From assembly GCF_964204645.1 (NCBI RefSeq), contig NC_134027.1:20918560-20982559 (forward strand): a stretch of DNA of 64,000 nt, read 5' to 3'. The notes beneath the pieces are model-generated. The model was not told where the DNA came from. It searched no databases and worked only from the letters and a program-made list of their open reading frames with translations. Within the stretch, counting starts at the first letter, position 1. The number at the start of each line of letters is the position of its first letter. This DNA is from Tubulanus polymorphus. Its lineage: Eukaryota; Animalia; Nemertea. The position numbers and the translations under genes were made by a program. Below, one piece after another: positions 40,856 to 59,664 of this stretch.

Positions 40856-40907
40856 CTAGAACGTACGGTAGTTGTGTTCTTCCCGTTCACGTCTCGTATC
40901 ATACGTA

Positions 40908-41027
40908 AGTAATTGGGAAAGTAGGCTTTCAGATCAGAGTACGAAGTACGAGACACCACTCATCACCACAAGTAATTTTTTTCCTAACACTCATCACCAC
41001 AAGTAATTTTTTTTCCTAATAAATGGG
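40908..41027 (+). repeat. Left terminal inverted repeat (120 bp)
   Basis: Exact reverse complement of 57225-57344, including T-run lengths. Contains two tandem CACTCATCACCACAAGTAAT(T)nCCTAA units and the ATG of the first ORF. Confidence 0.97.
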
Positions 41028-41349
41028 AGATAGAAAAGCATTCTTAGCAACAATAAATAACAGAATAAAACCAGCAAAAAAACAATTTGAAATAAAAAAG
41101 TTAGTTGATGTTACAAAAGAAATTGAACATAAAATATTGAAATTAGAAAAGATAAAAACTAAATATGGAGAGAAAGTATCAGCTAATTTAAGCTACTGTA
41201 ATGTTAGTACATCGCGAGAATTTAAAGTGTTTTTACCTGATAAATGGGTTTCATTGAGTACGGAGGAATTGAAAGATTTAGTAGGATTTAAAATAATATA
41301 TCATGGGAAAAATGAAGACGGTCATCATGATTTAGAAATTGTTGATTAA
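41023..41349 (+). CDS. Polinton small basic protein of unknown function (108 aa)
   Basis: Starts at TAAATG inside the TIR. Lys-rich, no motif recognised. Confidence 0.75.
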   Translation: MGDRKAFLATINNRIKPAKKQFEIKKLVDVTKEIEHKILKLEKIKTKYGEKVSANLSYCNVSTSREFKVFLPDKWVSLSTEELKDLVGFKIIYHGKNEDGHHDLEIVD

Positions 41350-41528
41350 ATTTAAAAAAAAATAAATTAATAGAAATAATGAATATCTAGAATCCGAAAT
41401 GACTTATCTGGACAATTTAATTGCTCCACATAGATGGTGCCATAAACAGCACCCACACAGTGATAGACAAAAGTAGTGAGATATTCAATTAATTAAAAAA
41501 AATTATTTTTTTGCTTTTTTCTAAAATA

Positions 41529-41897
41529 TTAATCCATTTTTTTTATTATCAATTTTGGAATTTCAGAAGTATTTTCATTTTTGATAGCAGTTGTTTCAGA
41601 ATTATTACTATCATGAATTTTATTTGATTTCTTATACCAATTACACCCAATCAAAATGAATACAATTACAAATCCAACTGTAAAATATAGATATTTATCA
41701 AATATTCTACTATCAGAAGGAGTAGAAATAACAATATTTTCACCATTTTTATTAACATTTTTATTACTTATTTTTTCTTTTACAGCTTTTTTATATTCTT
41801 GTGATTTAATTCCTAATTGTCGAGACCATTCAATTTGTTTCTGAGTTCTCGGTTTTTTCTTCACAGTTAATTCCTTCACTTCTTTCACTTCGCTCAT
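41529..41897 (-). CDS. Polinton single-pass membrane protein (122 aa)
   Basis: TAAATG start, basic N-terminus, hydrophobic YLYFTVGFVIVFILIGC. Confidence 0.75.
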   Translation of the reverse strand: MSEVKEVKELTVKKKPRTQKQIEWSRQLGIKSQEYKKAVKEKISNKNVNKNGENIVISTPSDSRIFDKYLYFTVGFVIVFILIGCNWYKKSNKIHDSNNSETTAIKNENTSEIPKLIIKKMD

Positions 41898-42435
41898 TTA
41901 TTATAGAAATATTTTTACTTTCAATATTTGAAAATGTTATAACCCCGGTTGATAATAATGTCATAAATCCACCTAATTGAAATGATAAATATCCAATCCA
42001 CTTATTTAATTCAGTCATAACTAAATAATCATTTTTTAAATCGGAATATAATCTATTTTCATCTTCAATTGGTAGTATATAATTACATAATTTACTATAA
42101 CCTTTTACTACATTTTCTGATATCGCGTCATTAATTTTAGCTGTTCTCGCGGCTTCATAAATCTTAAATAATCTAATAATTTCAACTGATTTCATTGTAT
42201 CTAATTCATTATAAGTTAAATTTTTATCAACAAATTTTTTACATTTTCCAGATGCTATTAATATTTCTAATTGATGTTTGCAATAAAGATAATATTCATA
42301 ATTATTATTTGTTGTAACATTATTTAAAGCACCATCATCTGGAGGTAATTTTGTTTCTGTTATTCCTAAATCATCTAAAGTTTTTTCAATTGGAACATCA
42401 CCATTTTTAGATTTTATTTTCTTTTCACCTCCCAT
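41830..42435 (-). CDS. Polinton protein of unknown function (201 aa), hydrophobic C-terminal segment
   Basis: TAAATG start; WIGYLSFQLGGFMTLLSTGVITF near the C-terminus. Confidence 0.75.
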   Translation of the reverse strand: MGGEKKIKSKNGDVPIEKTLDDLGITETKLPPDDGALNNVTTNNNYEYYLYCKHQLEILIASGKCKKFVDKNLTYNELDTMKSVEIIRLFKIYEAARTAKINDAISENVVKGYSKLCNYILPIEDENRLYSDLKNDYLVMTELNKWIGYLSFQLGGFMTLLSTGVITFSNIESKNISIINERSERSEGINCEEKTENSETN

Positions 42436-42466
42436 TTATAAAACAAATAAATTAGTTGTGTTGTTG

Positions 42467-42714
42467 CAACTAGAATTCAACTAGAATGTAATTAGAATTC
42501 AACTAGATTAACAAGCTAGTTGAAATATTGTTGTTTTTGTTTATTTCTTGTTAAATCTAGTTGATTTTTGTTCCAACTACTAACAACTAGAATTCAACTA
42601 GAATGTAACTAGAATTAAACTAGATTAACAAGCTAGTTAAAATTTGATTTTTGTTACAACTACTAATAACTAGAATTCAACTAGAATTCAACTAGATTAA
42701 CAAACTAATTGAAT
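42467..42714. repeat. Internal non-coding array of 11-bp (CAACTAGAATT) units in three blocks
   Basis: Blocks start near 42467, 42584 and 42668. Each ends in AACTAGATTAACAA(G/A)CTA. Confidence 0.9.
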
Positions 42715-43323
42715 TTAAATAAATTCATATTTAAATGGGTGTTGTAATCTAAATAGTAATTTTGATCTTTTAATATTTTTCAACTTATCCATATATTCAT
42801 TATGTAAATCATGTGGAATAATGTCATTTTCCTCAAGTGCATTTTTCATTGATTTTCTATCTTTATTGTAGAATAAAACTAGAAATCTAATGTTTTCTCT
42901 AAAGTCTTTAACAATTGAATTATATTTTTGATTTAAAACCCAAGTTGTTATCCCAAAATGTCTCCCAGAGAAAGCTAAATAACATAACTCACTTTCTCTA
43001 ATTTTAGAATCATGTAAATTTGCGCAATCATCTATGATAAATAATGTATTTGATCCTTTATAAATATCAATTGCTATTTTTATACAATTATCTAAATTTT
43101 CTTTTATTGTTTTAGGATCTAATATAATAAATTTATTATTCCTAGTAATATTTCTATCATAAGTTTGATTAAATTCATATGTTGGACAAAATAATACTAT
43201 ATTATCAAAATAGTTTTTGTAAACAGTTTCTAATAAATTTAATATAAAATAAGTTTTTCCACAATTTGTTACGCCAGAAATTAACATATTATGAGGCTCA
43301 AATATGAATAATTCCTTATTCAT
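42715..43323 (-). CDS. A32/FtsK-HerA-like genome packaging ATPase
   Basis: Walker A SGVTNCGKT, Walker B LFIIDD, GRH arginine motif and downstream Q, as in A32-family ATPases. Confidence 0.9.
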   Translation of the reverse strand: MNKELFIFEPHNMLISGVTNCGKTYFILNLLETVYKNYFDNIVLFCPTYEFNQTYDRNITRNNKFIILDPKTIKENLDNCIKIAIDIYKGSNTLFIIDDCANLHDSKIRESELCYLAFSGRHFGITTWVLNQKYNSIVKDFRENIRFLVLFYNKDRKSMKNALEENDIIPHDLHNEYMDKLKNIKRSKLLFRLQHPFKYEFI

Positions 43324-44451
43324 TTATATATTTTTAATTTTACTTGATAATATCCATTCATTGAATTTATCTGGCCATCCAACCCATTTTACTAAAGAAT
43401 ATTTTTTTCTTTTAACAGTTTTTGTTTTTAGTACTTTTTCAATTTTATATTCTTGTTCTAGATTTTCAGTAGTTAAACTTAATTCTTCTTCATAAAAATA
43501 TCCATCAACTTCTTCACCATCTAAATCTTCTAATTTATAGACATATGGTTTTGTTGTTATTACCTTTTTTATTTTATATATTTCTCTAGTAAAATTTCGA
43601 TCGTATCCTTTGTCAAATATCTTTTTATACTTAGAAATTCTAACATTTTGACCAACTTTAAATTTAGGTTCACCAAAATCATCAACAAGAAATGCTCCAT
43701 ATAAATTATTCCAAACAATTTCAGCATTTTCAGGTTTTCTAGCATCAATAGGTTTCATTCCAATAGAAGAATGATAAGAATTATTATATCCTTCTATAAA
43801 TTTTGGTAAAACATCAATCCATTTATAAGTATTATTTGCTGTAAAATATTTCCACATTCTTGTTCTTAATGTTCTATTAAATCGTTCAACAACTGCTGCT
43901 TTTTTATCTGATTTTGTTGAAAAATATTTAATATTATGAAAATCTAAAAGTCCATGAACTAATGAATTATCAAATTCTTTTCCATCATCAAATTGTATTT
44001 TTTCTGGTTTTAGTTTACCACCTGAAAGAAATTTTCTTAAAACATGTGATGTTTGTGCAGCATCTTTTCTATAAAGTGGGAAGCTCCATACATAACGACT
44101 AAAAATATCAATTATATTCAATATCCACCAATAATCATTATTATCTTTTTTAAGATTTTTCATATCAATTAAATCTCCTTGCCACTGTTGATCTACATAA
44201 CTTACCATAGTTTTACGAGTTTTATATTTTCTAACAATTTTTTTATGTGTTGTATATGTTGGTTGTTCTAACATAAATTCATTTATATCTTTATATTTAA
44301 CTAAATTTTGTGGGATTATCTTATCTAATTTATCTTGTTTTACTTTACGCCATATATTTTTAGTAGAAGAATAAGCAACCGAACTCTCAGGGTTGTAATA
44401 TAAATTTCTTAAATATTGTTCTTTAGTATTAGGAGTTTTTTTACCACTCAT
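43324..44451 (-). CDS. Retroviral-like (rve) DDE integrase with C-terminal chromodomain
   Basis: WQGDL, IDIFSRY, IQFDDGKEF, VVERFNRTL catalytic motifs. The C-terminus YKIEKVL...LVKWVGWPDKFNEWI is chromodomain-like. Confidence 0.95.
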   Translation of the reverse strand: MSGKKTPNTKEQYLRNLYYNPESSVAYSSTKNIWRKVKQDKLDKIIPQNLVKYKDINEFMLEQPTYTTHKKIVRKYKTRKTMVSYVDQQWQGDLIDMKNLKKDNNDYWWILNIIDIFSRYVWSFPLYRKDAAQTSHVLRKFLSGGKLKPEKIQFDDGKEFDNSLVHGLLDFHNIKYFSTKSDKKAAVVERFNRTLRTRMWKYFTANNTYKWIDVLPKFIEGYNNSYHSSIGMKPIDARKPENAEIVWNNLYGAFLVDDFGEPKFKVGQNVRISKYKKIFDKGYDRNFTREIYKIKKVITTKPYVYKLEDLDGEEVDGYFYEEELSLTTENLEQEYKIEKVLKTKTVKRKKYSLVKWVGWPDKFNEWILSSKIKNI

Positions 44452-44481
44452 TTATATATCCTTAATTTTAACTTTATATTT

Positions 44482-45729
44482 CTAATATTGAATACTATCT
44501 AATTGTGAATTTACAATATTTAATTGTGCGTCAGATATAATATAAATGTGCATTTTAAAATTTTTGATTCCTTTATTCTTTTTCATGAATAATTGTATTC
44601 CATCTTTAGTGTTCTGTAGTTTTTTTCCAGAACCATGTAATAAGTTATCTTCAGTTGTTCTAAAATCTAACCATAATGCATATTTATTACCGGTATAATA
44701 ATCAATTTGATTAATGTTACAATTTTCAGATGATTTCACTTTTTCATTCATAAAATGTTTTCTAATTTCTGGCCATTGATCAATCATTCTCATTCCTTGA
44801 CAAAATATTTTATTCGCTATTCCTTCGATAGTTATTTCTACTTTTGTTATTTCAGGATTATAATAATTATCAACATTTATTGCACCATTAGAATATGTTG
44901 CAATAGTAAAAAATATTAATATACCTTTAATAGATCTTCTAGGAAAGTTAATATTCTCATTAATTATTTCATCATTTGCATTAATAGTTACAGTTTTAAA
45001 TTTATCAATATAATCATATAATAATGAAAATCCTTGATTGTATTGAGTTTGAATTGTGCTAGCAATATTTTCATTAGTTATTGTGTTATATTCTAAACAT
45101 ATATTCGATAATTTATAACTCATATCTTTAACAACGCTAGATAATACAATTTCATTTACAGGAGCAAATGTTATCTCAAATATAATATCTTCTTGAATTG
45201 CGTATTTATATAAAGGTGCATTATTATTTATCAATTCAAAGTCTAATGGAATTTTATATTTGCTTCCATAAATCTTTTTAATCAAATTATCTGTGGCACG
45301 AGTTACTACTGCATTATTGGCTTCAGATCTTAATTTATTATGGTTTTCCGATTGGATGCCTTGAAATATCATATTATTTCTATTTTCTTTAGTTAACCAT
45401 AAATCTTTATAATGCATAAATAAATTATAATCATCTAATGAGAAAACTGTTTCTGGACCAATCTTTATTGTTAACTTTTTAATCAAATATCTTCCAACAT
45501 TATCAACAACATAATTGTTATCATGGCCAGTTACTTTTATATCGGCTGATAAATAAATACTGTTTGGAACATAAAAAGTATTTTGTGTTAATCGAGGGAT
45601 TCTAACATATAAAGTTTCATCGGGATTAATATTTGAAGGGTTATGAGTAATTATATGATGTGATCTTTCTGCTTTAAAAGCATTAGATATTCTATGATTC
45701 TTCGAAGGACTTATATAACTCCCACTCAT
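44482..45729 (-). CDS. Probable double jelly-roll major capsid protein (415 aa)
   Basis: Size, beta-strand-like alternation, N-terminal NPSNINPDETLYVRIP / LIKKLTIKIG / YKIPLDF pattern resembling Polinton/PLV capsids, and genomic context. The fold is inferred, not computed. Confidence 0.7.
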   Translation of the reverse strand: MSGSYISPSKNHRISNAFKAERSHHIITHNPSNINPDETLYVRIPRLTQNTFYVPNSIYLSADIKVTGHDNNYVVDNVGRYLIKKLTIKIGPETVFSLDDYNLFMHYKDLWLTKENRNNMIFQGIQSENHNKLRSEANNAVVTRATDNLIKKIYGSKYKIPLDFELINNNAPLYKYAIQEDIIFEITFAPVNEIVLSSVVKDMSYKLSNICLEYNTITNENIASTIQTQYNQGFSLLYDYIDKFKTVTINANDEIINENINFPRRSIKGILIFFTIATYSNGAINVDNYYNPEITKVEITIEGIANKIFCQGMRMIDQWPEIRKHFMNEKVKSSENCNINQIDYYTGNKYALWLDFRTTEDNLLHGSGKKLQNTKDGIQLFMKKNKGIKNFKMHIYIISDAQLNIVNSQLDSIQY

Positions 45730-45773
45730 TTATTTAACAAAAAAATTAATTATTTATTTTTTGATATCATGGT

Positions 45774-47210
45774 TTACTTGATATTTTTTGATATCATATT
45801 TACTAAACCAAAAATAATAGCACTTACAACTGTAATTAAAAATAAAATAATATGTTCAGCAGCAAAGTTGATAATGTTTCCTGCAGATTTCAATATAAAA
45901 CCAACAATTGAAGCAATAACTCCTGGTAAAGCTGCAGCAGATTTCTTTGATAGTTCCCATAAATATTTTGCTAATTTCTTTAAACCATCCTTAACTTTAT
46001 CTTGTATAGAATTATTACCTGGAGGTTTATCTGGTTTGTTAGGAGTGGGAGTAGGAGTAGATTTCAAAGCATTTGATATAGCTAAACCTATTGTTGTAAA
46101 TAACATAGTAACAGATGTTAGAATTGAAAGAATTGTTATTCCTTCTAATTTAAATAATAATTTTATTCTGTCTTTCAATGATATTTTAGAATCTGGTTTT
46201 ATCAACAAATCTTTAAAAATAACTTTTAATCTATTAATATTATAATCATATGATTTTAACAATAATTTAATTTCTTCTTTTTGTAATTCTATGTTATATT
46301 CTAAATCATCTTTTTCTTTTTCTAAACGTAATTCTTTTTGCCTATATTCTATTTCATCAATTACTTGATGATCTAAATCAGACTTTAGTTGTTCTATTTC
46401 TTTATTTTTATCAGTTAATTCTTTTTCTAAAGTTCTAATTTTAAAATCTCTTATACTTTTATTATGTGCAATTTTATCAGATGCAAGTCTTATACTAATA
46501 ATTTCTCTAATTGCTTTATCAGAAAATATATTTAAATCTTCTAATTGTTGATTTGTTGCATCAAGTAATCCATTTGGTAAAAGTTTTACAGTTTGAACTT
46601 TATTTGATTTAAGTTTACTATTTTTGGAAGTTATATTCTGTTCAGAAGTTGTTTCTGTTTCTAAATTTTCATTAATTATCTTAAAAAATTTAGCATTTCT
46701 TTGTTTAAATTCTTTTATATTATAATCTCTTTCTTCTTGTGTAACATCAATTATAGCATCATTTTTTATTTTCTTAATTCTAGATTGTTCTAATAAATTA
46801 AAAGTTGATTGTGTTATTATTTTATCACTATTTTTAAGATTTGAAATCTTAAAATAATAGTCGCCTTTCAATTTCCAATAATATTCACCATTTAAAAATT
46901 TTAAATCTTCTACTAAATGATCCATACCTTTATTTGTTATATTGAAACCAGATTTTTCTAATATTGGTTTAAATTTATGAATAATTTCATTATAATTGTA
47001 TTCTTTTTCTGTTATTTCTGGTACTTCATTTTCAATACTTATCTTTGAACGTGCTTTGTCAATAAATTGGGGTGTAGTTAAATTAGAATTATATGCTGAT
47101 TCATTACCATCATTAAAACTTGTTTCATCAAAATCAGGTGGTTGTTCATCAGTTATACCAGGTTCATCAAAAGGATCCATTCCAATATCTTCTACACCTT
47201 CTACATCCAT
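45774..47210 (-). CDS. Coiled-coil protein with C-terminal membrane segments (478 aa)
   Basis: Acidic N-terminus, EK-rich heptad region, hydrophobic GITILSILTSVTMLFTTIGLAI and IILFLITVVSAIIFGLV. Confidence 0.8.
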   Translation of the reverse strand: MDVEGVEDIGMDPFDEPGITDEQPPDFDETSFNDGNESAYNSNLTTPQFIDKARSKISIENEVPEITEKEYNYNEIIHKFKPILEKSGFNITNKGMDHLVEDLKFLNGEYYWKLKGDYYFKISNLKNSDKIITQSTFNLLEQSRIKKIKNDAIIDVTQEERDYNIKEFKQRNAKFFKIINENLETETTSEQNITSKNSKLKSNKVQTVKLLPNGLLDATNQQLEDLNIFSDKAIREIISIRLASDKIAHNKSIRDFKIRTLEKELTDKNKEIEQLKSDLDHQVIDEIEYRQKELRLEKEKDDLEYNIELQKEEIKLLLKSYDYNINRLKVIFKDLLIKPDSKISLKDRIKLLFKLEGITILSILTSVTMLFTTIGLAISNALKSTPTPTPNKPDKPPGNNSIQDKVKDGLKKLAKYLWELSKKSAAALPGVIASIVGFILKSAGNIINFAAEHIILFLITVVSAIIFGLVNMISKNIK

Positions 47211-47226
47211 TTATATAATAATAAAA

Positions 47227-48528
47227 TTAAAATTTAAAATATAATATTCCTCCGATTACAATTCCTATACAAGTTATAGCTAATTTAGTATTTTCATGGG
47301 ATTTATTATCATCATTTAGTTTAATTATATCATGTTGAATATTATCAGTTCTATTATTTTCTGATGTATTATAATCTTTTATTTTAGAATCATTATTTAA
47401 TTTAATATTCTTAGTTTTAGTTTCTGTTGATTGAATGTGTTTTTTATTTTTTTCACCTTCCATTAATTTTGGAGCAGTAATAATCTTTTTATTTATATCA
47501 TTCAATCCAAATGAATTATTTATTGTTGCAGTTTTAATTAGATTATTATAACCAATTATATTTCCCATCTTCAATACTAAATCATTAGAAATAATTAATA
47601 GATTAGGGCCTATACAATAATTAAGTCTTACATGAGATTTATCTAAATATTTTTGATATCTTATAATGTTTTCTGGAATCGATCTATTTTTATCATTATG
47701 TATGGAATCTTCAAATAAAACTTTAAACTGTTTCTGCGCATCGAATGAAGTGTTATCATTTCCAATTATTGGGGATCTTGTTTCAACTTGAGCGCCTAAA
47801 ATACATATCAAATAAATTCTAATAGATTGATTTATTCTTTGTATACCTGATTTTGTAAAACCTTCACCATTTTCTAAAATGAAATTAACCCAACCATTAT
47901 TATTATCAATTTTATAATTATGATAAGCTCCAATTCTATGCATATAATCAATTCTTTTTATTTCATACTGTTCACCGACACCTTGCAATTTACCATGCGC
48001 TCTAAAATCGGAATTAATATTTATATTAAATTCATTACATATTTTATAAAACTTGGATATATTAATATTATTATCCAATTCTTTAAAATATTTAGACCCG
48101 GGTAAAGGACATTCTAATTCATTTAATATTATTCTGATTTGAAAATATGTGTGAAATCTAAATATTGTGTGAATTAATTTTAAATCAGAATACTTCAAAT
48201 TTTTATCTAAGTTATTTAAATGATCATTCCAACTAATTCCACATCCTGTTGTTGCACAATAAACAGCAAAATTTAATTGATTCTGCCAATATTTCATATT
48301 AGATTTTACTTTATATATATGATATTCATCTCGAGTAAAAGTAACTTCATATGTATTAAATATATTTTCCATTTTAGAAATAAAAAACTGTGATTCATTA
48401 ACATAAATTTCTAAATTAGTTAATGAATTTAAAACTATATTTTTATATGTAATATTTTTCTTAAAATCTATTGCTGGAATATTATATTTAATTGATTTAT
48501 TATATTGGAAAGCTTTTGGAAACCCCAT
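47227..48528 (-). CDS. Polinton protein of unknown function with C-terminal membrane anchor (433 aa)
   Basis: TAAATG start, WQNQLNFAVYCATTGCG core, terminal LAITCIGIVIGGILYF. Confidence 0.8.
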   Translation of the reverse strand: MGFPKAFQYNKSIKYNIPAIDFKKNITYKNIVLNSLTNLEIYVNESQFFISKMENIFNTYEVTFTRDEYHIYKVKSNMKYWQNQLNFAVYCATTGCGISWNDHLNNLDKNLKYSDLKLIHTIFRFHTYFQIRIILNELECPLPGSKYFKELDNNINISKFYKICNEFNININSDFRAHGKLQGVGEQYEIKRIDYMHRIGAYHNYKIDNNNGWVNFILENGEGFTKSGIQRINQSIRIYLICILGAQVETRSPIIGNDNTSFDAQKQFKVLFEDSIHNDKNRSIPENIIRYQKYLDKSHVRLNYCIGPNLLIISNDLVLKMGNIIGYNNLIKTATINNSFGLNDINKKIITAPKLMEGEKNKKHIQSTETKTKNIKLNNDSKIKDYNTSENNRTDNIQHDIIKLNDDNKSHENTKLAITCIGIVIGGILYFKF

Positions 48529-48544
48529 TTATATAACTAAAAAA

Positions 48545-48979
48545 TTAATAATTTATTAATTCTTTTAATAATTTATCTTGTTCTTCAACTGTTATATGAC
48601 CATTTAAACTTATTATATAATCTAGTGTGTTCTTTAATTTATTAATTTCTTTTATATTAGTTTTAATTTTTTCTTTATTACTTTTTATATTTAATTTTGA
48701 ACTTATACCAGTTAAAACACTTGAACTTAATCCTTACACACCAATTGATATAGCTAAAGGTGTTAATGGACTGAATATTGCTAGAAATGTTATTACAGAA
48801 CTAATTGTAACCGAACCACTTATAATCAAATAATATATAATTTTACTTTTTAAATATTTTTTCTTTTTTATCTTTAAGTCACTTTCAAATTCTAATATTT
48901 GTTTTTCTAAATATGTTTTTAATTTAGTTTTATTTATATCATGAGGAATAATATCAATACTATCAACTTTATCTTCCAT
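48545..48979 (-). pseudogene. Two-TM membrane protein gene with one in-frame TAA (48734-48736)
   Basis: The frame continues past the stop (GLSSSVLTGISSKL...) to TAA at 48545, which is the first triplet of the next gene's upstream motif. Confidence 0.75.
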
Positions 48980-48998
48980 TTATTTAGAATAAAAATTA

Positions 48999-49421
48999 CT
49001 AATTAGTAAACTTATAAGCAACAAATATAACAATAATAGTTCCACCTAAAATCCAAATTATTTCATATTTCTGTTGTTCTTTACTCGGGGTATAATAATC
49101 TGATAATTTAGGTTTGTATAGATTTAATTTTTCTTTATTTGTTACTGCGTTATATAAACTCATTGCATCATCAACTGATTGAAAATCTCTATGTGAAATC
49201 TTCTGATCATATAATTCTTTATTGATGTAATCCATATAGTTTTGTCTCTTTTCTCTATATTCTTCTGCAGCTTTATTGTATTTCTCTAACGCTAAGTTAT
49301 GTCTTCTTTGTTCTCCTAATGAACTATTTTTATCAATATGTTTAAATAAATAACCACCACCAGTAAATGCTAAAGCGTTAACAATTGCCGATCCTATAAT
49401 AGTTATAATTGCAGAAGCCAT
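48999..49421 (-). CDS. Polinton membrane protein (140 aa), hydrophobic at both ends
   Basis: MASAIITIIGSAIVNALAFTGGGYLF ... IIWILGGTIIVIFVAY; TAAATG start. Confidence 0.8.
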   Translation of the reverse strand: MASAIITIIGSAIVNALAFTGGGYLFKHIDKNSSLGEQRRHNLALEKYNKAAEEYREKRQNYMDYINKELYDQKISHRDFQSVDDAMSLYNAVTNKEKLNLYKPKLSDYYTPSKEQQKYEIIWILGGTIIVIFVAYKFTN

Positions 49422-49445
49422 TTATTTAACAAAAAAATTATGCAT

Positions 49446-49667
49446 TTATATGGGAGGAATATATTTTTGTTTTTCCAAATAATCAATAGTTAAATTGGAT
49501 AAAGTAACTGCTAATGTTAATTTTAGAATATCATTTATATCAAATCTATCAACATTAACACTTCCCATTTTGAATACTTTTTTTAATACCATTGAATAAC
49601 CAACAGTTCCAACTGATAGTAATGCGCCATTATATAATCCAGTTATTATCCACTTATTATCACTCAT
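49446..49667 (-). CDS. Small hydrophobic Polinton protein (73 aa)
   Basis: TAAATG start overlapping the upstream stop codon; two hydrophobic stretches. Confidence 0.7.
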   Translation of the reverse strand: MSDNKWIITGLYNGALLSVGTVGYSMVLKKVFKMGSVNVDRFDINDILKLTLAVTLSNLTIDYLEKQKYIPPI

Positions 49668-50027
49668 TTATTTATCAAAAAAATTACTATCATCAAAATA
49701 TTTAGTTAACTTATTTATGATTAATTCAACATTTATTTCATTACTAGTTTTATGATTATCATATATTTCGGTTAATATGTTTTTAATATCATCGATGATA
49801 AAATCTTCATCTAATTCATAAAATCTTAAAGATTCTCTAATTAAATTAGTAATCTTTTCTACATTTAAAATTTCTTTATCTATTGTTGTTTCATACTCAA
49901 ATGTTGTTTCATTAGAAAATGTAATATTTTTGATATGTGTTATTACATCATTAATGTTAAATTTCATTTCTTTCTCACGTTTAAAATCAAATCCAAAACA
50001 TATACTCGGTCCAACAGTTATATTCAT
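49668..50027 (-). CDS. Polinton protein of unknown function (119 aa)
   Basis: TAAATG start with the full upstream motif; acidic, no motif recognised. Confidence 0.7.
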   Translation of the reverse strand: MNITVGPSICFGFDFKREKEMKFNINDVITHIKNITFSNETTFEYETTIDKEILNVEKITNLIRESLRFYELDEDFIIDDIKNILTEIYDNHKTSNEINVELIINKLTKYFDDSNFFDK

Positions 50028-50043
50028 TTATAAAGGTGAAAAA

Positions 50044-50802
50044 TTACTCTTTACATCTTATAACTAATTCATAAATTACAGGAAAGTTATTCAAATCAAT
50101 TAAATAACCATTATGATTTCTTATTTCTAATTTAAAATTATTGAAATGTGGAATACAAGGTTTGAAATCACATTCGGTTAAATTATAATTTATTTGCGTT
50201 CCAAATTGTTTGACATTTTTTAATGGTAAAATATTTAATAAACCAGAATTACAAATTGTATCTTTAGTTGCTTCAAATGTTTTTGTAGGATCGATTAAAT
50301 TGCAATAAATATAAAAGTGTGTAAAAGGTATTATATTTGAGTTACCTTCTGCGTATGCTGTAACGGTATCTGGTGCAATTCCTAACAGTTTAGCTAAAGG
50401 TTTTCTTATTGTAAATTTAAATTGTTCGTCATTAGCTAACCTAATCTTTATTTTATTAGAACTAGCACTTTTTAAAATTCTAATACTAAATCCGGAATCA
50501 CTTCCTAATTTAGCTCGAGCTTTTCTATTAATTTCTTGTGTTAATGTATCTAAATTATATAATCCTGGTTTTAAATATATAAAAAACCATTTATTCCTTT
50601 TTTTGTAAAAGATTGAAAAAATTAAATGTTCTAGACTTTTATCCGATATATTATAAAAAGAATTACATAAACTTATATTAACTAATTTTAAATCTACACA
50701 ATTCTTGAATTCTCTATCTAATTGTACTAGTAAATTATGAGATTTATAATTTGTAAGTTTTCTAGAATCAATAAATATTCTGTATTCTTTTAATTCTACC
50801 AT
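50044..50802 (-). CDS. Probable minor capsid (penton, single jelly-roll) protein (252 aa)
   Basis: IFIDS start, SFYNI, PGLYN, FYIYCNLI and terminal IRNHNGYLIDLNN..V.YEL pattern typical of Polinton/virophage pentons. Confidence 0.7.
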   Translation of the reverse strand: MVELKEYRIFIDSRKLTNYKSHNLLVQLDREFKNCVDLKLVNISLCNSFYNISDKSLEHLIFSIFYKKRNKWFFIYLKPGLYNLDTLTQEINRKARAKLGSDSGFSIRILKSASSNKIKIRLANDEQFKFTIRKPLAKLLGIAPDTVTAYAEGNSNIIPFTHFYIYCNLIDPTKTFEATKDTICNSGLLNILPLKNVKQFGTQINYNLTECDFKPCIPHFNNFKLEIRNHNGYLIDLNNFPVIYELVIRCKE

Positions 50803-50870
50803 TATTTATAACATAAAAAAATTACCGCTCATCACTAAAAATTAATTTTAATAAAATTTTTCCTTAATAA

Positions 50871-52169
50871 ATGGATGAGAAGATAGCATGCGAAATTTGT
50901 GGTGAACTTCTAAGAAAAAGTAATAAGGCTCGACATATGAAAAAACATGATGAAAATTATAAACCCCCTAAAATAAACTGTCCAAAATGTAATAAATTAT
51001 TCTCAAGAAATTATGTTAAAAAACATTCAGAGAAGTGTAGAATTAATGGTGCAACGGCTAATGTTGATAGTAATTCTGCTGAAGTTGAACCTGAAGTTAT
51101 TTGGAAAAGACCTTTCTTATTCTATGATAAGGATAATATAAAAGATCATTTCTGTGAGCCTTGTCAAGTAAAATATAGCCCTGAAAATATAGAAGATTGG
51201 GAGAATCATCAATTTCGTAAAGCACATATAGATAAAATTTCTAATAAATTTGAAACTGAATTCAATGAAAGAAAAAATAATTTATTAGAAAAAATAAAAT
51301 ATGAGAAAACGTTACCAGATAATAAAGAAACAGTTGAAAAGTTAGAAAAACAATATAATGAATTAACAAGAAAAACATATTATTGTAAATATTGTAAATT
51401 GATTATTACAACAAGTAATTCAAATCTACATAATAGAACAATAAAACATAAAGAAAACGTAAGAAAATACCAAGAGCTTAATGAAGATCTATTACCAAGA
51501 AATTATAAACAAAAATGCCCACAATGTAGTTATGCGACCTTAAGGCAAGAAGGTACTGTGTTATTTTGTGTTGAATGTGGATGGCAAAAGAATTTATGGG
51601 GTGAAGAAAAAACTAGAGATTTTCTCATAGAACCAAAATTAAATTATCTAGATGAAATTTTTAAAATATTTTCTATAGAAGATCATACACCAGAATATAT
51701 GCAATGGCTTGAAAAAATGAAAATAATAGAAAATAAAAATGGTGAAATAACTAAAAAAGATATTATAAAAACAATTATTCCACCAACATTTAACACAAAA
51801 CAAAAGAAAATGTATTTATATTTATTATTTAACGATTATTATGAAAAACCTAAATTAACAGAAGAAGATATGGAAAATATAAAAAAAATATTTAAACAAA
51901 TATTAATGTATCATTTGGAAAATAGAATAACAGATTCAATAAATTATGAATTCTTTTTAAATAAGATTGTAAATTATTTAAACCTAGATATTATAATTCC
52001 ATTTGATGAATTAACAAACAAAAAGAAACAAAGAGAGCGAGATGAAATGTGGAACAAGATAGAACTTTATTTAAATGAGAAAAATGGAATGGAAGAAGAA
52101 CCTGAACAATTAAATGAAAATGAAGAAGCCAATAGTGATTTCGAGTTTGATGATATAGATCCATTTTAA
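50871..52169 (+). CDS. Zinc-finger protein with C-terminal poxvirus/NCLDV late transcription factor VLTF3-like domain (432 aa)
   Basis: Four N-terminal C2H2-like fingers and a Zn ribbon CPQC...CVECG. The tail SINYEFFLNKIVNYL...LTNKKKQRERDEMWNKI resembles VLTF3 C-termini. Confidence 0.7.
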   Translation: MDEKIACEICGELLRKSNKARHMKKHDENYKPPKINCPKCNKLFSRNYVKKHSEKCRINGATANVDSNSAEVEPEVIWKRPFLFYDKDNIKDHFCEPCQVKYSPENIEDWENHQFRKAHIDKISNKFETEFNERKNNLLEKIKYEKTLPDNKETVEKLEKQYNELTRKTYYCKYCKLIITTSNSNLHNRTIKHKENVRKYQELNEDLLPRNYKQKCPQCSYATLRQEGTVLFCVECGWQKNLWGEEKTRDFLIEPKLNYLDEIFKIFSIEDHTPEYMQWLEKMKIIENKNGEITKKDIIKTIIPPTFNTKQKKMYLYLLFNDYYEKPKLTEEDMENIKKIFKQILMYHLENRITDSINYEFFLNKIVNYLNLDIIIPFDELTNKKKQRERDEMWNKIELYLNEKNGMEEEPEQLNENEEANSDFEFDDIDPF

Positions 52170-55100
52170 TAACCATAAGGTAATGTTTTTATACCATCAT
52201 CTGAAATATGCCTTTTATCATCAAATGGATTTAAACTAGTTTTTTCAACTTCATTAATGTACATCTCATGATCTTCTGATCTTAAACAATTCATCTTGTG
52301 TTTCATTACAATTGATTTATATAAACACTTTATATAATCTTGAAATTCTATATGTTTATCAACCACATGTTTTGTTATTCCTTTTAACTTTTTAGCTTCA
52401 TGATCTTTTGTTCTGTAACTATACATTTTACTTCTTATCCCAACAAATTCAATCATTTCATCACCTCCTAATTCATCTTTAAATTTACCAGGAATCTTTT
52501 TATTATCATTGCTAAATAGTTCATGATCTTTAGGATAATTGCTAAAATCAAAATGATGTTTTAATGTTTTTAAGTCTTTTGTTATGTCATTTGTCTTGAT
52601 TTTTAGTATGTAACTGTCAGTATTTTTTTGGATTAATGGGAACCCAGAATTGAATGTTCCATCATCTGTTGATAAATCATAAACATAGTCAGTTGGGTTA
52701 TATATTTCAAATAAATCTTTAACTTCTTCTGTTAATTCTTTTTCTACATGCCTTAAATTAAAACAATTTGGTTTAGATTTAATTAATTCTATATTCATAT
52801 TAAATCCTAATGAACTGCATAACACATTTAACCCACTTATTGCACATTTTCCTTTCTGTGCAAAGGTTATCGTTTTATCCTTTATAAATTTTTTAGTACC
52901 ATCGGCTGCGTAGAACCCAATGAAGAACCATTTTCTAAGATTATATTCTGAATTTAATATATAATCTGGTACTATTTTTTCTTTAGTTGAAGTATTACTT
53001 TTCACTATTGCATGAATATAGAATTCATCATTATATTTTATAGCAAAATCTTTAGGATTATTTACAAGTATTCTATAAACCGCGGATGATTTCATAACAT
53101 CCATGATTCTAAATGTTTTATGTGAATAAACTTCTTCACAGAATTTCTTAATTCTTTCTAATAATTTTAAGTCTTGATTGCATAAATACCAACAATATTT
53201 ATTACCCCAAACATATTTATACACACCTGCTGAACCATCACCCATGAAAAATCCTTTGATAAAATATTCTTTTTCTTCCAATGTTTCGGGTTCTATATTA
53301 TAAATATTATCAATTATTTCATCAAATGACATATGATTCATTCTTGGGAAAAATCTTTTATGTAATAATTCATCTCCAATTTTTATATCAGTTGGTTTTA
53401 TTTCATCACCATTTCGTTTAATTAAACTGTGGTCTTCAGTAACATCTACAAATCCTAATTTAGTTCTAACTCTATAGATTTTCTTATTTGTTTTATGTCT
53501 AATAATATTCTTTAATTTTTTCCATCCATTTCTTGTCCAAACATCTATTAAACCATTTATTTGTATTAGTTCTTTTTCACCATATGAAAAATAAGATTTA
53601 TTTTGATTAGGAATTATTTCTGAAATTCTTCTAATTAATATTTGGTTATTGTATTTTAATAATATTGGGGTGTCAGCTGTTACAGAATCGAAGTATAGAA
53701 TTTCTATATGTTTTTCCCCAAACAATGGTTGTAATACATTGTAATAAAAATCATACATTAATAATTTTGATATTTCTAAAACTGTTGAACCAATGAAAAT
53801 GGGTTTATTAAATTTCATTGACGTTCTTTTTAATTTTACTGCTGTTAAATAATCTTCAAATCTTTTATTTCCTAAATGTCTAGGACTTGATTGTAGGTGT
53901 CTCAATCGTTCAGAATTATTTACTAATTCAATATCATTTCTATTTCTAATATTTTCACATGTTTTACCATAAAAACTATTGTTCATTAATTTGAAGAAAT
54001 CTTTTTCAAAATCTGTTTTTGATATGGTTCTCTGTTGAGTATTGAAATCTATATATTTTTCTAACCACTTTGATTGATTAAATTCAATATATCTATGTAC
54101 TTTCTTTAATTTCATTCCTTGTTTTAGATAAAATTTTAACATTCTATAATGAACAATATAATTGTATTTATTATTTTGAGTAAGTATTAATTTTTCTGTA
54201 AAAACATGATCTTTCGGTTTTATTTTCTTCTGGTATTCACTTAAATAACTATCATCTACAGTTAAATGTTCTGGGCAATAAGGTAAGTTTCTTGTTTTAA
54301 ACTTTATGTTATCAGGATATTCTAAATCAACTACAAAGAAATAACCAATTGGTGCTTCATCTTCTAAACTCATAATTGCGCTTTCCCAATTAGTTTTATC
54401 ATCATTTTCAACTTCTGTTAATATAAAATTTTTATATGGTTGAGGTTGCATCATTGCCCAACCATATAAATTATTGGCGTCAATATATAATAATTTATAT
54501 TCATCATTTGCTTTAAAATACCTATCTCCCATAACACCACTAATTCCACCTCTAATTGATTTTTCAAATAATAAAACCATATCTGGTTCTTTTAATAAAT
54601 CTAATTCTACATTTGTATATTTTAAACCACATTGCCAGGTTAAACCAGGACTTGAATAACAATAACAAGGATCAACATTAAAATGATTCAAATTAACTTC
54701 TCTAAATTTTTCAAATATGTCAGCCAATATCATAACATCTGATTTTAAATATAAATCAACTAATTCGCCATGATTTTTCATCTTAAAATGGTTCCAAATA
54801 TTTAATGTTCTATTAAACACTTCGTCTTTCACATACTCCTCTTTTAATTTATCATAAAATTGATCTTTTAATAATTCTGTTACATTAAAATCATCATGTG
54901 TTTTATAAAATGAATAAGGAATTGCGCCTTTATATCTCAATAATTTAAAATCTTGTTCATTTGGATAATAATATCGAGTTATAACAAAATCATTATCAAC
55001 TAAACTTTTTGATAAATTATCTAATGAACTTGCTAGAAATCTATAAGAATCTAAAAATCTAATGCAACCAAATTGAAATGAAATATAATTTTCAGATGTT

Positions 55101-57229
55101 TTAGCTAATAGTTTAAAATAATATTTTCTTACATTTGCTTCATTCATAGCATTATATTCTTCTATTTCTTGATTAATTGCGCCCAATTTTCCTGATAATT
55201 GTTTTATAAATAGATGGGTATCATAGCCTGATAAATTATGAAATAATATTGGTACGAAATTAACTTTCTTAGCTTGTAAATTGCAATCTTCATGAGCAGC
55301 TCCACGATATTTTGAATTCAAATGATCATGATCTCTAACTCTTTTATCAAATGAATAAAAACGTTTTTCACAATAACAACAATGAGTTGCATAATTAAAA
55401 TCAATTTCATCTTCTTTTGTCATAACTATTCTTTTATTTTTGTTTAATAATTTTGTAAAATCACTTTCTAATTCAATCATTTTATCACAAAAATCATTAA
55501 CTACATTTTCACCTCTAAAAGAAATATATTGACTTTCATATAATTCGGGATAATTTGATTTGATGTAAATTCCATAAGCAGCAGCTCTTTGATGAACTTT
55601 TTTTAATTGTATTTATAATTGGCGGGTCTTGTATTGTGTCTTCATTTAATTCATTTCCTTTATCCATTGATTTTAATAATTGCTTTTTGTTATATATTTC
55701 TTTTCTATCTTGATCAGTTAATTCTTTATTCAACGATTCAAAATCCCCATAAATTACAAATGGAACAATATTTTTAAATTTATGATTAGTAAATTTCAAT
55801 TTATAATCTTTTTCTGTTGGCATTATTAATTTACAAAAATCTTTATTATCACATAATTCTTTATGTTTTAATAATGTATTCTCAGTCATAAATTTGGATA
55901 AACATTTTCTACATAGATAAATTTTATCATGATGATCACTTTCTGTTCTAAAGAATAAATCAATTTGTTTTAACCACATATAATGTTCATTTTCATCTTT
56001 TTTGTAATATAACAAATCTATAGCATTTTCATCATCATAATATTCTGTTAAATATAAAGCTTCCAATGTATAATCTTTAATATTTTCACCTTTTGTCTTT
56101 GGTAATTGCATTAATTCGAATACATTTATTTTTAAATTATTAACTTTTTCTATTTTAGGAATCATTTTTATAGTTACTGGATATTGATCAATTTTATATA
56201 ATGTTTCATATTTCCGATAATCTGTTATTCTACAAACATTTTCCTGTGTTGGATGTAAACAACTAATAATTGACCATAGAAAACATTTATAATCTTCATT
56301 TTGAACATTTATTACTGCTTTTGTTGTAAACGGTAATTTGATATAACTTGATGCTTTCATATCCTTTTCTGTTGTAAAGTTTGAATCATTTTTAAACATT
56401 TTATTACTTTTTGATGTTTTATTCCTTTTTGTATTATAAACATTTAAATCTAAATATATGATTTCATTCAATGTTAAGCCAGAACCCTCAAAATATCTTT
56501 CTTCAATATGACGTTTAAATTCATTTAATATTTTTTCTAACTTCTCTTTTATTTGTATTTTTGAAATTATTTCTTCAGAGTGTGTTTGAATATTATAATC
56601 CATTTTTTCTTCTGACTTTATAAAACTTACTTTCCCAGAGATACTAATTTTTGGATATTCAACATCTGTTATCAAATCTAGTATTTTTTCTATTATTTCA
56701 TTAAATTTACTATAATCTTCTATTGTTGTGTCTTAAAAAATCTAAATATAATAGCTGCAGGACCAATTTTACTATGTAATGTTTCTAAGATTTCAATTGT
56801 ATCTTTTATTTCTAGTGAATCAATATAATTTCTAATATTTTCCATGTAAGGTTTATTTGAAATGGATTTAGTTTTTGAAGTTGATTCTTTTACTTGTTGA
56901 GGTTTATCATCAAAATAATCTATTCCTAAAACATTATTTCTCAAATTTTGATGGTGTTTTTCTGTTTCGAGATGTTTATTATAATTCCTTTTTGTTATAA
57001 ATTCATCACAAACTTCACATTTTATTTCATCCACATTCATATTTTCTAATCGTTCTTTTCTTTCAATGGAATTTTCTGGAGTTTCAAAATCTATAACATT
57101 TTTTATATGATTTGAAGATTTTTCATGTTTAGATTTATTAGATTTATCGATGTATTTTTTACAATATTGACAATAATATTGATTTTTATTGATATTATTG
57201 TTTTCTAGTTGGTGTTCATTCTCCCCCAT
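52166..57229 (-). pseudogene. Protein-primed family B DNA polymerase (pPolB) gene, broken into three ORFs by two single-base frameshifts, intein-containing
   Basis: ExoI VIYGDFES (ORF 55536-56675), ExoII FHNLSGYD, ExoIII YLKSDV, PolA YIDANNLYG, PolB FKLMNNSFYGK, PolC LYFD/TDS. EndoVII-like CCYC...VRDHDH..GAAHEDCN insert. The frames join at ~56732 and ~55600. Confidence 0.93.
52622..53686 (-). mobile_element. Intein (355 aa) with LAGLIDADG homing endonuclease inserted in pPolB motif C
   Basis: YFD|SVTADTPILL...VDVTEDHSL (block B)...FIKGFFMGDG...FFIGFYAADG (two LAGLIDADG motifs)...VYDLST (block F)...IQKN|TDS. Confidence 0.93.
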
Positions 57230-57344
57230 TTATTAGGAAAAAAAATTACTTGTGGTGATGAGTGTTAGGAAAAAAATTACTTGTGGTGATGAGTGGTGTC
57301 TCGTACTTCGTACTCTGATCTGAAAGCCTACTTTCCCAATTACT
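57225..57344 (-). repeat. Right terminal inverted repeat (120 bp)
   Basis: Exact inverse of 40908-41027. Supplies the ATG of the polymerase N-terminal ORF. Confidence 0.97.
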
Positions 57345-57740
57345 TACGTACGCCAAGATTCGCGAGATTTGCTATATTGATGACTTTTCCTTATCTTGTA
57401 CCCGTCTTGCTGATGCATTTCTTTCCGACCAGTTTTTCGGATGTTACTATGAAGTATTTGACCAATTAACATATTTCATCGTTATCGCCATTAATTACCT
57501 TTACATTGTACCTTTAACGTTGATTGTTATTTCAAATTCTGTTGTCGTTCAGTTATTCAAGGGTTCGAAAATGGTTTCGACTGATACGAAAACCACAAAA
57601 TCGAAACGTACAACAATAATGCTTGTAACAGTTTCACTCGCATTTGAAAAATGATTCCCGTAGTTTTAAGTAGGAGCTTGGCACTAAGCTGCTGACCAGT
57701 AGCCAACCGCCAAAGGCATGTAGTTCAGTTAGTTCAGTTA

Positions 57741-58092
57741 AGCCGGGCGTAGGTCGACCTTGCGACGCGACGCGACGCGACGCGACGCGATCGTCACGTT
57801 GCGTCACAAGTGGGGGCGTAAGTCGGTTGCGACACGATTGTCAGCGACTGTGTGCGACTAGTTGCTCCCAGTCGCAAGAGCGCGTAGATCGGTTGCGACG
57901 GTCGTGTCGCGTCGCAGAAAGTAGAACATGTGCGACTCATTGCGACTGGCGTCGCTGCCAGTCGCAACCCGTCGCTGGCAGTCGCAAGGTAGCGTAGGTC
58001 GGTTGGTCGTTGAGACGCGATCGTCGCTGGCGTCGCAGTGAGTCGCGTCGCAGTGAGTCGCAAGCCGTCGCAAGGCCGACCTACGCCCGGCT
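57741..58092. mobile_element. PIF/Harbinger-type MITE, GC-rich
   Basis: 27-bp TIRs agccgggcgtaggtcg(a/g)ccttgcgacg with one mismatch, TTA on both flanks, internal GTCGC/GCGAC repeats. Confidence 0.85.
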
Positions 58093-59664
58093 TTAGTAAT
58101 CAGGTAGTCTCAGGTGTGCGCCACAGGAAAATTTTGGAAATTAATTTCTGGAGCAATTTCACGGTTTCTGGCATATTGGGGTGAAAACGAAAAATGTTCT
58201 GCTTCATTTTCCTGCAACTTGACCTCGAATCAATTAGTAAAAGCATGTTTTAATAGACGAAAAAGTGTCAATAGCCACGATCACGCGAGCATTTTTGGCC
58301 CGTGCCAAATTTCAGCACGAGACAAATGATTGCGTTTGAATTGTAACTGGTACCGGAAATGACCCACTTCGCTTTGTTTGAGCATTGAGTATCGAGTTAA
58401 TGGTTTGCGTTTGCCAACGCGCTATATAATTAGGCACGGGCCAAATTTGGCTCGGGCCTGATCCGTGGCCAGATCGTGTTCCGATCGATGCTCACATTTT
58501 CATCGACCTTCGTCGACAAGCGGGCCCCTCACCTAAATACAGGCCCGACTCACAACTATAGAACAGGATCTTGAATTATGTGACTTTATTCAGACCTGTC
58601 GAAACGGATGCTTATTTAAGTAATTTGAGTGCAAAACAATTATTTCTTAAAAAGCAGTGGCGGATTTAGGGGAAGCACAAGGGGCATGTGCTCTCCCTAA
58701 AAGTGACAGCAAAATAAATCTGAAACGAACTTTTCAGGCAAAACATGCCAAAAAATTTTCTCTTTTTCTGATGACTGAAATTTAGTGGCTACACTCCATC
58801 TTTGACCTGAGAAATACACTTCCAAATTTTTCTGGCGGAGTCCGTATTGATATTGGGGGGTCTGTTTCAAAATACCCCCCTCTAAATAAGTCCCGCAGTG
58901 GATCCGCCCCGGAAACGAATACGCGGGCTTATCAAATAGCTCAATCACCTTAAATCTCAATTTCACTTCATATTGAATACGTAGGCCGTTTGGTAACATT
59001 TCCAGACTTCTCCAAAATTTTATTCTTATGAACACATGGACAGCTTTATCAATATCTCTCATGTTTACGCTCGTTTTCCGGGTAGAACCGGTGCACTTTT
59101 TAAATCGATCGTCAGGAGGTATTGCTAAGTTTTATTATGTTTCACGGGTTACAGAGAATTAATTTTTATTAGCGCTAACAATAAACTTTAGTTTTGGATG
59201 GTTTCTTTTTACGTGAATATTAGTTTTCCCGTATAAGAAATTATTGATGTGAATTAGAAATTCAAATCGATTTTCCAACATGTTTTCAGTAAAACCATCG
59301 CGTAAAAATTACGGATTGCAAACATATTCGTCCTCGTGATATATACCGGTACAGTCGACGTCGATTTATTCGTATTTTCACATATTTTGGAGACGTTTCG
59401 CAAGTCCGGATTTTTTTTTTATAGGTCAAACCGAATAATTAATTTTGATACTCGTAGAATTGACAGGGAACATTTTAAAACCTTTTGTCGACAGGGGAAA
59501 ACGGTTCTCGGGTTCAGAATCGAACTCCGAAACTACCATGCCTAGCTCTCATTGCACTTTGGATACAAATGTTGTATCTAGGGCCAATAACAATATTTTG
59601 TCAAAACAACTTTTTAAATTTCGTCGGCGTTCCTCAGTTTATGAGGCCATTTTGCCGATAGAGC

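Follow-up and report, generated by a model that had tools for sequence, protein, structure and literature searches.

The window analysed here is a stretch of 64,000 nucleotides (nt) from the genome of the nemertean Tubulanus polymorphus (contig NC_134027.1, positions 20,918,560 to 20,982,559), and it carries a Polinton/Maverick element of 16,437 bp at 40908-57344 whose 15 genes are each preceded by a promoter-like signal. A flanking host exon is 100% identical to hydroxylysine kinase of T. polymorphus, and GC content is about 24% in the Polinton against 35-45% (about 38%) in the host flanks. The element and its open reading frames (ORFs) are as follows.

40908..57344, no strand: Polinton/Maverick element, member of a multi-copy family
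40902..40907 (left) and 57345-57350 (right), no strand: target-site duplication, 6 bp, TACGTA
40908..41027, + strand: left terminal inverted repeat, 120 bp, perfect, starting AGTAAT
57225..57344, - strand: right terminal inverted repeat, within which lie the polymerase gene's start codon and promoter motif
41023-41349, + strand: ORF of 108 amino acids (aa), no family assigned
41897-41529, - strand: ORF of 122 aa with one predicted-looking hydrophobic stretch, kept in relatives
42435-41830, - strand: ORF of 201 aa, kept across the family, no family assigned
43323-42715, - strand: A32-like packaging ATPase (PF04665, E=8.3e-13)
44451-43324, - strand: rve integrase with C-terminal chromodomain (PF00665, E=7.9e-9)
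45729-44482, - strand: double-jelly-roll major capsid protein, 415 aa, by predicted structure
47210-45774, - strand: conserved ORF of 478 aa, coiled coil and hydrophobic C-terminal part
48528-47227, - strand: ORF of 433 aa, helical
48979 (start), - strand: ORF of 81 aa, broken near 48.73 kb; 144 aa in the close relative L001
49421-48999, - strand: conserved ORF of 140 aa
49667-49446, - strand: conserved ORF of 73 aa
50027-49668, - strand: ORF of 119 aa
50802-50044, - strand: ORF of 252 aa, candidate minor capsid protein
50871-52169, + strand: ORF of 432 aa with several zinc fingers
52166..57229, - strand: protein-primed DNA polymerase B (pPolB) gene in pieces 57229-56720, 56603-55536 and 55480-52166 (PF03175, E=1.6e-18)

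Perfect 120-bp repeats bounded by TACGTA on both sides, a pPolB with an rve integrase, and an A32-like ATPase with a double-jelly-roll capsid protein identify the insertion as a Polinton/Maverick. The window copy is damaged, with ORF 48979 broken and the polymerase gene split into three pieces by breaks near 56.7 kb and 55.6 kb. Against a 1693-aa relative, the 169-aa ORF at 57229 aligned over residues 1-120 (E=1e-7) and the 355-aa piece over residues 165-458, which makes the former the N-terminal piece and puts the beginning of the polymerase gene at the promoter in the right repeat. Since the TACGTA hexamer is palindromic, the element end was placed with read data (loose ends before 40907/40908), and the different flanks found at this left end in four DNA runs indicated a multi-copy family.

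The capsid model (predicted local distance difference test score 91) matched the capsids of PBCV-1 (Paramecium bursaria chlorella virus 1) and Singapore grouper iridovirus (SGIV) in Foldseek with E ~1e-17, while the capsid profile gave no PDB sequence match. The 252-aa ORF is a candidate single-jelly-roll minor capsid protein, an assignment that draws on a weak, sub-threshold match to DUF5901. Two zinc-finger ORFs are encoded by the element, and six conserved ORFs lack any annotation; the largest without annotation, the 433-aa ORF, had no family, Atlas or fold match. Searches of 17 ORFs against Pfam/NCBIfam gave no match to RNA polymerase or TATA-binding protein (TBP) families, and none to any protease family, including the adenain type that marks adintoviruses. 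An adenain catalytic pattern was absent from all six frames, which is a weak test as it also matched 0/509 related ORFs. A 355-aa intein with a LAGLIDADG domain lies in pPolB motif C (residues 599-953 of ORF 55480-52166, window 52622-53686); its site is empty in four outgroup pPolBs, and among its relatives those from other pPolBs are at 46-64% and those from polymerases of RB69-like and delta-like type at ~40%. Judged by titles, no publication matching an intein in a metazoan Polinton was found.

A two-part motif spaced to TAAAT

The motif copies, site by site, are these.

41004..41025, + strand: full motif TAATTT-N10-TAAATG before ORF 41023-41349
41895..41917, - strand: ATAAATG with upstream TAA one base further out, before ORF 41897-41529
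42433..42454, - strand: full motif before ORF 42435-41830
43321..43342, - strand: TAAAAT variant before the ATPase 43323-42715; the TAA of TAAATG is the integrase stop
44449..44470, - strand: TAAAAT variant before the integrase 44451-43324
45727..45748, - strand: full motif before the major capsid protein 45729-44482
47208..47229, - strand: full motif before ORF 47210-45774, with its first TAA ending the upstream gene
48526..48547, - strand: full motif before ORF 48528-47227
48977..48998, - strand: full motif before ORF 48979
49419..49440, - strand: full motif before ORF 49421-48999, with the same letters as ahead of the capsid gene
49665..49686, - strand: full motif before ORF 49667-49446; the upstream gene stops at the TAA of TAAATG
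50025..50046, - strand: full motif before ORF 50027-49668
50800..50824, - strand: TAATTT-N10-TAAATA, then ATG, before ORF 50802-50044
50852..50873, + strand: TAAAAT variant before ORF 50871-52169
57227..57248, - strand: full motif ahead of the polymerase gene's true start

A preliminary description of this DNA had proposed that a motif of fixed geometry precedes essentially every gene, and its counts held throughout. TAAATG is present at 14/15 gene starts, always as ATAAATG, and the remaining start at 50802 reads TAAATAATG, as had been noted. The pattern TAATTT-N10-TAAATG occurs ten times in the window, every copy at a gene start, with 0 copies in the 47.6 kb of flanking host DNA and a mean of 0.14 (maximum 2) in 100 dinucleotide shuffles. 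Also confirmed were the identity of the copies at 45729 and 49421, the three identical 16-nt spacers in which the first TAA is the stop of the upstream gene (47227/47210, 48545/48528, 50044/50027; at 48545 it is the 3' piece of the broken ORF 48979 that ends), and two TAA|ATG junctions (43324/43323, 49668/49667). The two polymerase ORFs said to lack the motif are downstream fragments, and the gene itself carries it before the N-terminal piece at 57229. Within the left repeat lie a tandem unit of 31 bp, the full motif and the first ORF's start codon; as the starts at 41023 and 57229 are twins in the inverted repeats, nine of the ten full copies are independent. In the tandem unit (40957-41022 / 57230-57295), the first copy has the promoter's upstream block without TAAATG.

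The comparison with internal ATGs that the preliminary description had called for also favoured the motif, with TAAATG at 14/15 starts and at 34/633 other ATGs in the element. The fairest control, out-of-frame ATGs on coding strands, gave 22/308, whereas the 0/77 for in-frame internal ATGs is not a test because an in-frame ATG cannot follow TAA. Among TAAATG sites, TAA-N13-TAAATG marked 13/14 starts and 1/34 others (Fisher p ~1e-9, for a pattern chosen on the same starts on which it was tested). The upstream block is better written TAAWWT, which was found at 13/15 starts and at 0/633 other ATGs. Across 13 independent starts (without the repeat twin 57229 and without 50802), A at -18, -17 and -4 and T at -14 are invariant, and T at -13 occurs in 11/13.

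At 50802 the block keeps its 16 nt to TAAAT and the ATG lies 3 nt further downstream, and in the integrase gene of one relative (L005) the block is likewise 16 nt from TAAAT despite a shifted ATG. Altogether the ATG has slipped 2-3 nt downstream with TAAAT retained at four starts or loci (50802, the L005 integrase, L008 and L011). The spacing is thus fixed to TAAAT and not to the ATG, as expected of a transcription signal.

One clade of relatives and its start codons

Relatives were taken as the best 80 of 176 metagenome loci by capsid alignment plus three genome loci, and they have the core genes of the window element in common. Conservation in homologous elements, another check that had been proposed, was evident: TAAATG preceded 74/89 ORFs in 17 clade loci (the window and 16 loci with capsid identity of at least 49%) and 7/419 ORFs in 67 other loci, counting ORFs of at least 70 aa and taking in spurious ORFs and near-duplicate contigs. 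The trait is confined to one branch of a quick capsid tree with midpoint root (15/60 rows, SH-aLRT (Shimodaira-Hasegawa-like approximate likelihood ratio test) 99), and L030 and L073 were assigned by identity and not by the tree. One clade locus (L014) has 0/2 TAAATG starts, but TAAATG lies 4 nt upstream of its called capsid start. Literal TAATTT is limited to the subfamily of the window, and the clade-wide block consists of A at -18 to -16 followed by T at -14 to -12. Clade GC ranges from 20 to 46% with the motif kept throughout; since it holds at 36-46% GC (L006-L008) and is missing in outgroups of 28-31% GC, base composition does not explain it.

In a close relative (L001, 10340-10981), a deoxynucleoside kinase under the same promoter stands at a site of variable accessory genes. 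Under Bartonella isolates, NCBI lists capsid proteins of the clade (the P0046 cluster, 54% identity), which are likely contaminants derived from an animal or vector host. Viral contigs searched with the capsid gave no matches.

The start codons of the clade bear on whether TAAATG is merely a translation context, or a product of stop-start coupling, in a compact AT-rich genome. A purine at +4 in 55/57 clade starts and the two TAA|ATG junctions of the window would fit that account. At -3, however, T was found in 52/57 trusted clade starts and a purine in 115/136 outgroup starts (32/33 in the AT-rich outgroups, which lack the TAAATG trait), where trusted starts are those whose N-terminus agrees with the window homologue, eight near-duplicate loci having been dropped. 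The clade therefore does not use the host Kozak context found in its sister clades but an anti-Kozak base, which is hard to explain if it is in the message and easy if transcription begins in the AAA. As to coupling, an upstream stop directly adjoins 3 of the 67 TAAATG starts; 15 lie opposite a divergent gene, and for 10 the locus shows no ORF upstream. The triplet at -3 reads TAA in 67 cases and TGA in one, whereas 20/76 true stops are TGA or TAG. Coupling was rejected on these grounds, and with the upstream block following TAAAT rather than ATG we regard the translational account as a whole as very improbable.

Very short AT-rich leaders occur in diplomonads and amoebozoans. The clade might have its true home in another host, for instance a protist symbiont or parasite with such leaders, whose own initiator the motif would be, with the worm copies as repeated integrations from outside. 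The 24% GC of the element against ~38% in the host flanks and the metagenomic origin of the clade relatives are in keeping with this, whereas the many insertion sites, the perfect repeats and the target duplication speak for recent activity in the worm germ line, the motif stays constant while clade GC spans 20-46%, and the outgroups of the family include a bivalve copy (P0105). We give this origin little credence.

Promoters of large viruses and of the host

Late promoters of vaccinia contain TAAATG with a T ten bases upstream, and intermediate promoters an AT-rich stretch 15-19 nt upstream (PMC11980589); the intermediate design places an AT-rich core about one helical turn from a TAAA read directly by the viral polymerase (PMC12917281). 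In poxviruses, polymerase slippage yields 5' poly(A) leaders (PMC6211774). The window element resembles vaccinia late and intermediate promoters in having TAAAT over the ATG, a T-run ~10 nt upstream and an AT-rich block 15-19 nt upstream (PMC11980589, PMC12917281, PMC5294985, PMC6211774). TAAAT(G) overlaps the start codon at 14/15 genes with T about 10 nt upstream of TAAAT, as in pox late promoters, and the clade joins late-type features (TAAATG, T at -13) with the intermediate-type upstream AT block. It differs from vaccinia in being more rigid (TAAWWT, near-invariant A at -4), in using one class for all genes and in having no recognisable RNA polymerase of its own.

We compared the clade with two related orthopox loci and with 12 loci fetched by the XRN1 gene (L172-L183), which we take to be invertebrate iridovirus-like from their gene content (MSV199, DUF3627, SWIB and similar). 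TAAATG starts numbered 10/24 in an orthopoxvirus locus and 64/155 ORFs in ten of the 12 iridovirus-like loci, two short loci being left out. T at -13 was found in 52/66 clade promoters, 15/20 orthopox and 24/60 iridovirus-like starts, and A at -4 in 56/66, 10/20 and 60/60, respectively. The TAAATG starts of the iridovirus-like loci always have A at -4, but they read AATAAATG at 55/60 against 29/66 and are without the A-block and T-run upstream. This AATAAATG form at 55/60 distinct TAAATG starts comes with A at -9; the two reviews covered do not mention such an initiator, and for invertebrate iridescent virus 6 (IIV-6) they name an AAAAT element, not TAAATG.

The preliminary description had matched the architecture to poxvirus late promoters, and this stood in part. 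A promoter of large-DNA-virus type is supported, indirectly, by the clade-wide conservation, the T at -3, the spacing to TAAAT and a T-run at the vaccinia late position. The specific assignment to poxvirus late promoters was not supported: TAAATG is equally common in the iridovirus-like loci, A at -4 fits those better, and 29/66 clade promoters were nearer pox in a two-way matrix test. With TAAATG at 64/155 iridovirus-like starts and that test undecided, the label "poxvirus" is too narrow.

In a narrower version of the helper reading preferred below, the motif would specifically be a late or intermediate promoter of poxviruses (Chitovirales), and marine invertebrates would host the helper, a pox-like virus yet to be described. 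The A-block, T-run and T at -13 are as in orthopox (15/20 against 24/60 iridovirus-like), the profile correlation rises to 0.64-0.67 after a one-base shift (the best of five shifts, uncorrected), and Polinton-like viruses are described in entomopoxvirus occlusion bodies (PMC11296320). Set against this are the A at -4, present in 56/66 clade and 60/60 iridovirus-like starts and in only 10/20 orthopox starts, a comparison set of two related orthopox loci with no entomopoxvirus, the description of poxviruses from vertebrates and insects (PMC4542343), and reports of iridovirus-like particles in a marine worm and a nautilus (PMC5923455). We judge this version unlikely.

Host transcription offers a different account, in which RNA polymerase II and an element-encoded factor, such as the 432-aa zinc-finger protein or the product of a conserved ORF without assigned function, would produce near-leaderless nuclear messages with no helper. 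The chromodomain of the integrase, the need of the element to reach the nucleus and the six conserved ORFs without annotation leave room for it. Yet the 17 ORFs have no TBP or RNA polymerase family match, and the zinc-finger ORF has one homologue among the 83 loci, mostly fragments, while the motif is clade-wide. The host TATA box lies 25-30 bp from the start site (PMC5294985), so that host start sites would fall inside the ORFs; the motif spacing is shorter and unlike TATA geometry. In addition, one AATAAA per ~200 coding bases would invite premature cleavage. Clade genes do not avoid this host cleavage signal (200 copies, with 201.7 predicted by codon shuffles; 73 over 15 kb of the window), and AT-rich outgroups do so mildly (63 against 82.8, or 0.76 of expectation, z -3.2). 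Polymerase II transcription with an element factor appears quite unlikely to us.

The reading that we prefer, and consider probable, is that the motif represents promoters for the cytoplasmic late/intermediate machinery of a helper nucleocytovirus (Nucleocytoviricota), as in mavirus and Cafeteria roenbergensis virus (CroV). An element without its own RNA polymerase, as the family searches indicate, is virophage-like in this respect. A pox-like and an iridovirus-like helper would fit about equally.

Several observations weigh against this reading. The motif resembles those of several large-virus groups and is identical to none. In the two-way matrix test, the 29/66 clade promoters nearer pox compare with 27/51 for the internal control, and the upstream profile correlated with one orthopox locus at r=0.40 (p=0.05, n=10), with the other at r=0.31 (p=0.10), with the iridovirus-like loci at r=0.17 and with internal TAAATG controls at 0.00. 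The AATAAA contrast is weak, with AATATA also low in AT-rich outgroups (0.82) and GC-rich outgroups not significant. The capsid tree is quick and midpoint-rooted, with four clade rows flagged for composition; the clade loci are metagenome contigs, and only the window is tied to an animal genome. Several conserved ORFs without assigned function leave room for an element-encoded factor. Lastly, three of the 120 listed intein relatives were checked and were RB69-like (one) and delta-like (two), none pox-like; at three of 120, intein ancestry is uninformative as a pointer to the helper.

Two other candidate signals were discarded. Depletion of the pox early terminator TTTTTNT (0.44 of expected in the clade) reflects general homopolymer avoidance because the control pattern TTTTTN[ACG] (0.57) and the outgroups (0.64-0.65) are depleted too, and short head-to-head spacers, of 19-30 bp in four clade loci, occur just as often in outgroups.

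Searching viral contigs for the motif returned 77 matches. TAAATG starts in pattern-selected loci amounted to 8/17 and 6/12 ORFs in two giant-virus bins and 6/8 in a small-virus contig, and genome-wide motif counts in giant-virus bins were modest, at 5 vs 1 and 4 vs 1 against reversed controls in two bins and at 47/29, 32/28, 17/9 and 31/13 in four bins. The small-virus contig (L124, 1-7198) has ATAAATG-type starts at 6/8 ORFs and no Pfam match in the four tested. An unrelated pPolB/ATPase/integrase element found by polymerase similarity (L085, 1-9034, 38% GC) has TAAATG at 7/7 ORFs and no capsid match to the window; the N-terminal extension of ~200 aa of its integrase looks protease-like from a motif and has no family match.

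Read data and surroundings gave further observations. In DNA run X1, single element contigs reached a depth of ~4,000-5,000 against ~30 in the flank, an element/flank ratio roughly ten times that of X2 (another sample); extrachromosomal amplification is one possibility, the depth not being a copy number. One RNA run yielded three partial contigs with 25-116 bases matching the element, which speaks for neither side. The non-coding stretch 42467-42712, between the ATPase and the 201-aa gene, contains a nest of 10-bp units (CAACTAGAAT-like), whose copies recur at distances of 117 and 72 bp. Just beyond the Polinton, a GC-rich inverted-repeat element with GCGAC/GTCGC units (57740-58093) is probably a host miniature inverted-repeat transposable element (MITE). 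Two near-identical, intronless host genes at 3925-4929 and 15489-16490, ~11.6 kb apart, look G protein-coupled receptor-like by eye, and remnants at 5678-8385 and 18820-22352 of the window were likewise labelled by eye as long interspersed nuclear element (LINE)-like.

Known systems and significance

Under the helper reading, the A-then-T block about 16 bases upstream of a TAAAT overlapping the start codon would act as a two-part promoter. Transcripts would start inside the AAA, so that the unfavourable T at -3 would never be in the message, and extra A residues at the 5' end may come from slippage of the polymerase, as happens in poxviruses. Integrated copies would stay silent until helper infection, whereupon the post-replicative polymerase of the infecting nucleocytovirus would transcribe every gene from 25-bp promoters, all switched on together, those for polymerase and integrase among them, with the inverted repeats supplying the promoter of the polymerase gene; the element would then replicate and package in the helper's factory. 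We infer the start sites, the poly(A) leaders, the helper and the silence of integrated copies from the DNA.

Promoter sharing with a helper is already established for protist virophages and Polinton-like viruses. The late motif of CroV is found in EMALE04 and mavirus, which alone respond to that virus (PMC10945749); Gezel-14T/PgVV carries the early promoter of Phaeocystis globosa virus (PgV) (10.1101/2022.07.28.501842), and helper promoter sharing is also described for a transpoviron (PMC11788076). Like the window element, mavirus/EMALE04 and Gezel-14T/PgVV are integrating elements of 15-20 kb with pPolB and rve integrase and one large-virus-like motif across their genes, and different element types among them have different motifs. 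They differ in their protist hosts, in their TCTA or AAAATTGA motifs and in having a helper and reactivation demonstrated, whereas the window element has an animal host, a TAAATG-type motif and a helper that is only presumed.

Among animal elements, the Polinton-like viruses associated with entomopoxviruses (Barth et al. 2024, PMC11296320) are similarly animal-associated and proposed as nucleocytovirus parasites; they differ in their occurrence in occlusion bodies and their adenain-type protease, and the words "promoter", "motif" and "transcription" are absent from the main text of that paper. Vertebrate Mavericks (PMC8097293) and adintoviruses (PMC8502044) share with the window element inverted repeats with AGT-type ends, a 6-bp target duplication, pPolB, integrase, ATPase and capsid, while no adenain protease as in adintoviruses was found in the window ORFs. 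An iridovirus helper has been proposed for vertebrate Mavericks from host-range overlap, without promoter evidence (Barreat and Katzourakis 2021, PMC8097293). The linear cytoplasmic pGKL elements of yeast are also based on pPolB, with a TAAAN initiator and poly(A) leaders that arise by slippage, but they have their own RNA polymerase and capping enzyme and do not integrate (PMC6211774). The literature covered yielded no account of an animal Polinton with a TAAATG-type promoter, and the term "promoter" is absent in PMC8502044, PMC11131425, 10.1101/2023.08.22.554363 and 10.1101/2024.03.23.586382.

This promoter signature bears on how animal Polintons live, as autonomous elements of the nucleus or in dependence on a helper virus. 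It divides one Polinton family, setting a clade whose initiator is of large-virus type apart from sister clades with host-type starts, and allows animal Polintons to be sorted by likely lifestyle from DNA alone. Quite possibly, although we hold it tentatively, the clade made a single-step switch from host-type starts to the TAAATG of cytoplasmic viruses, in which case its members would be endogenous animal virophages and an undiscovered pox- or iridovirus-like virus of marine invertebrates would be predicted. The finding also predicts a large DNA virus that infects nemerteans or their relatives and of which, if this is true, the element would be a parasite; the worm, in turn, would possibly gain from helper-woken elements an antiviral defence in the style of mavirus.

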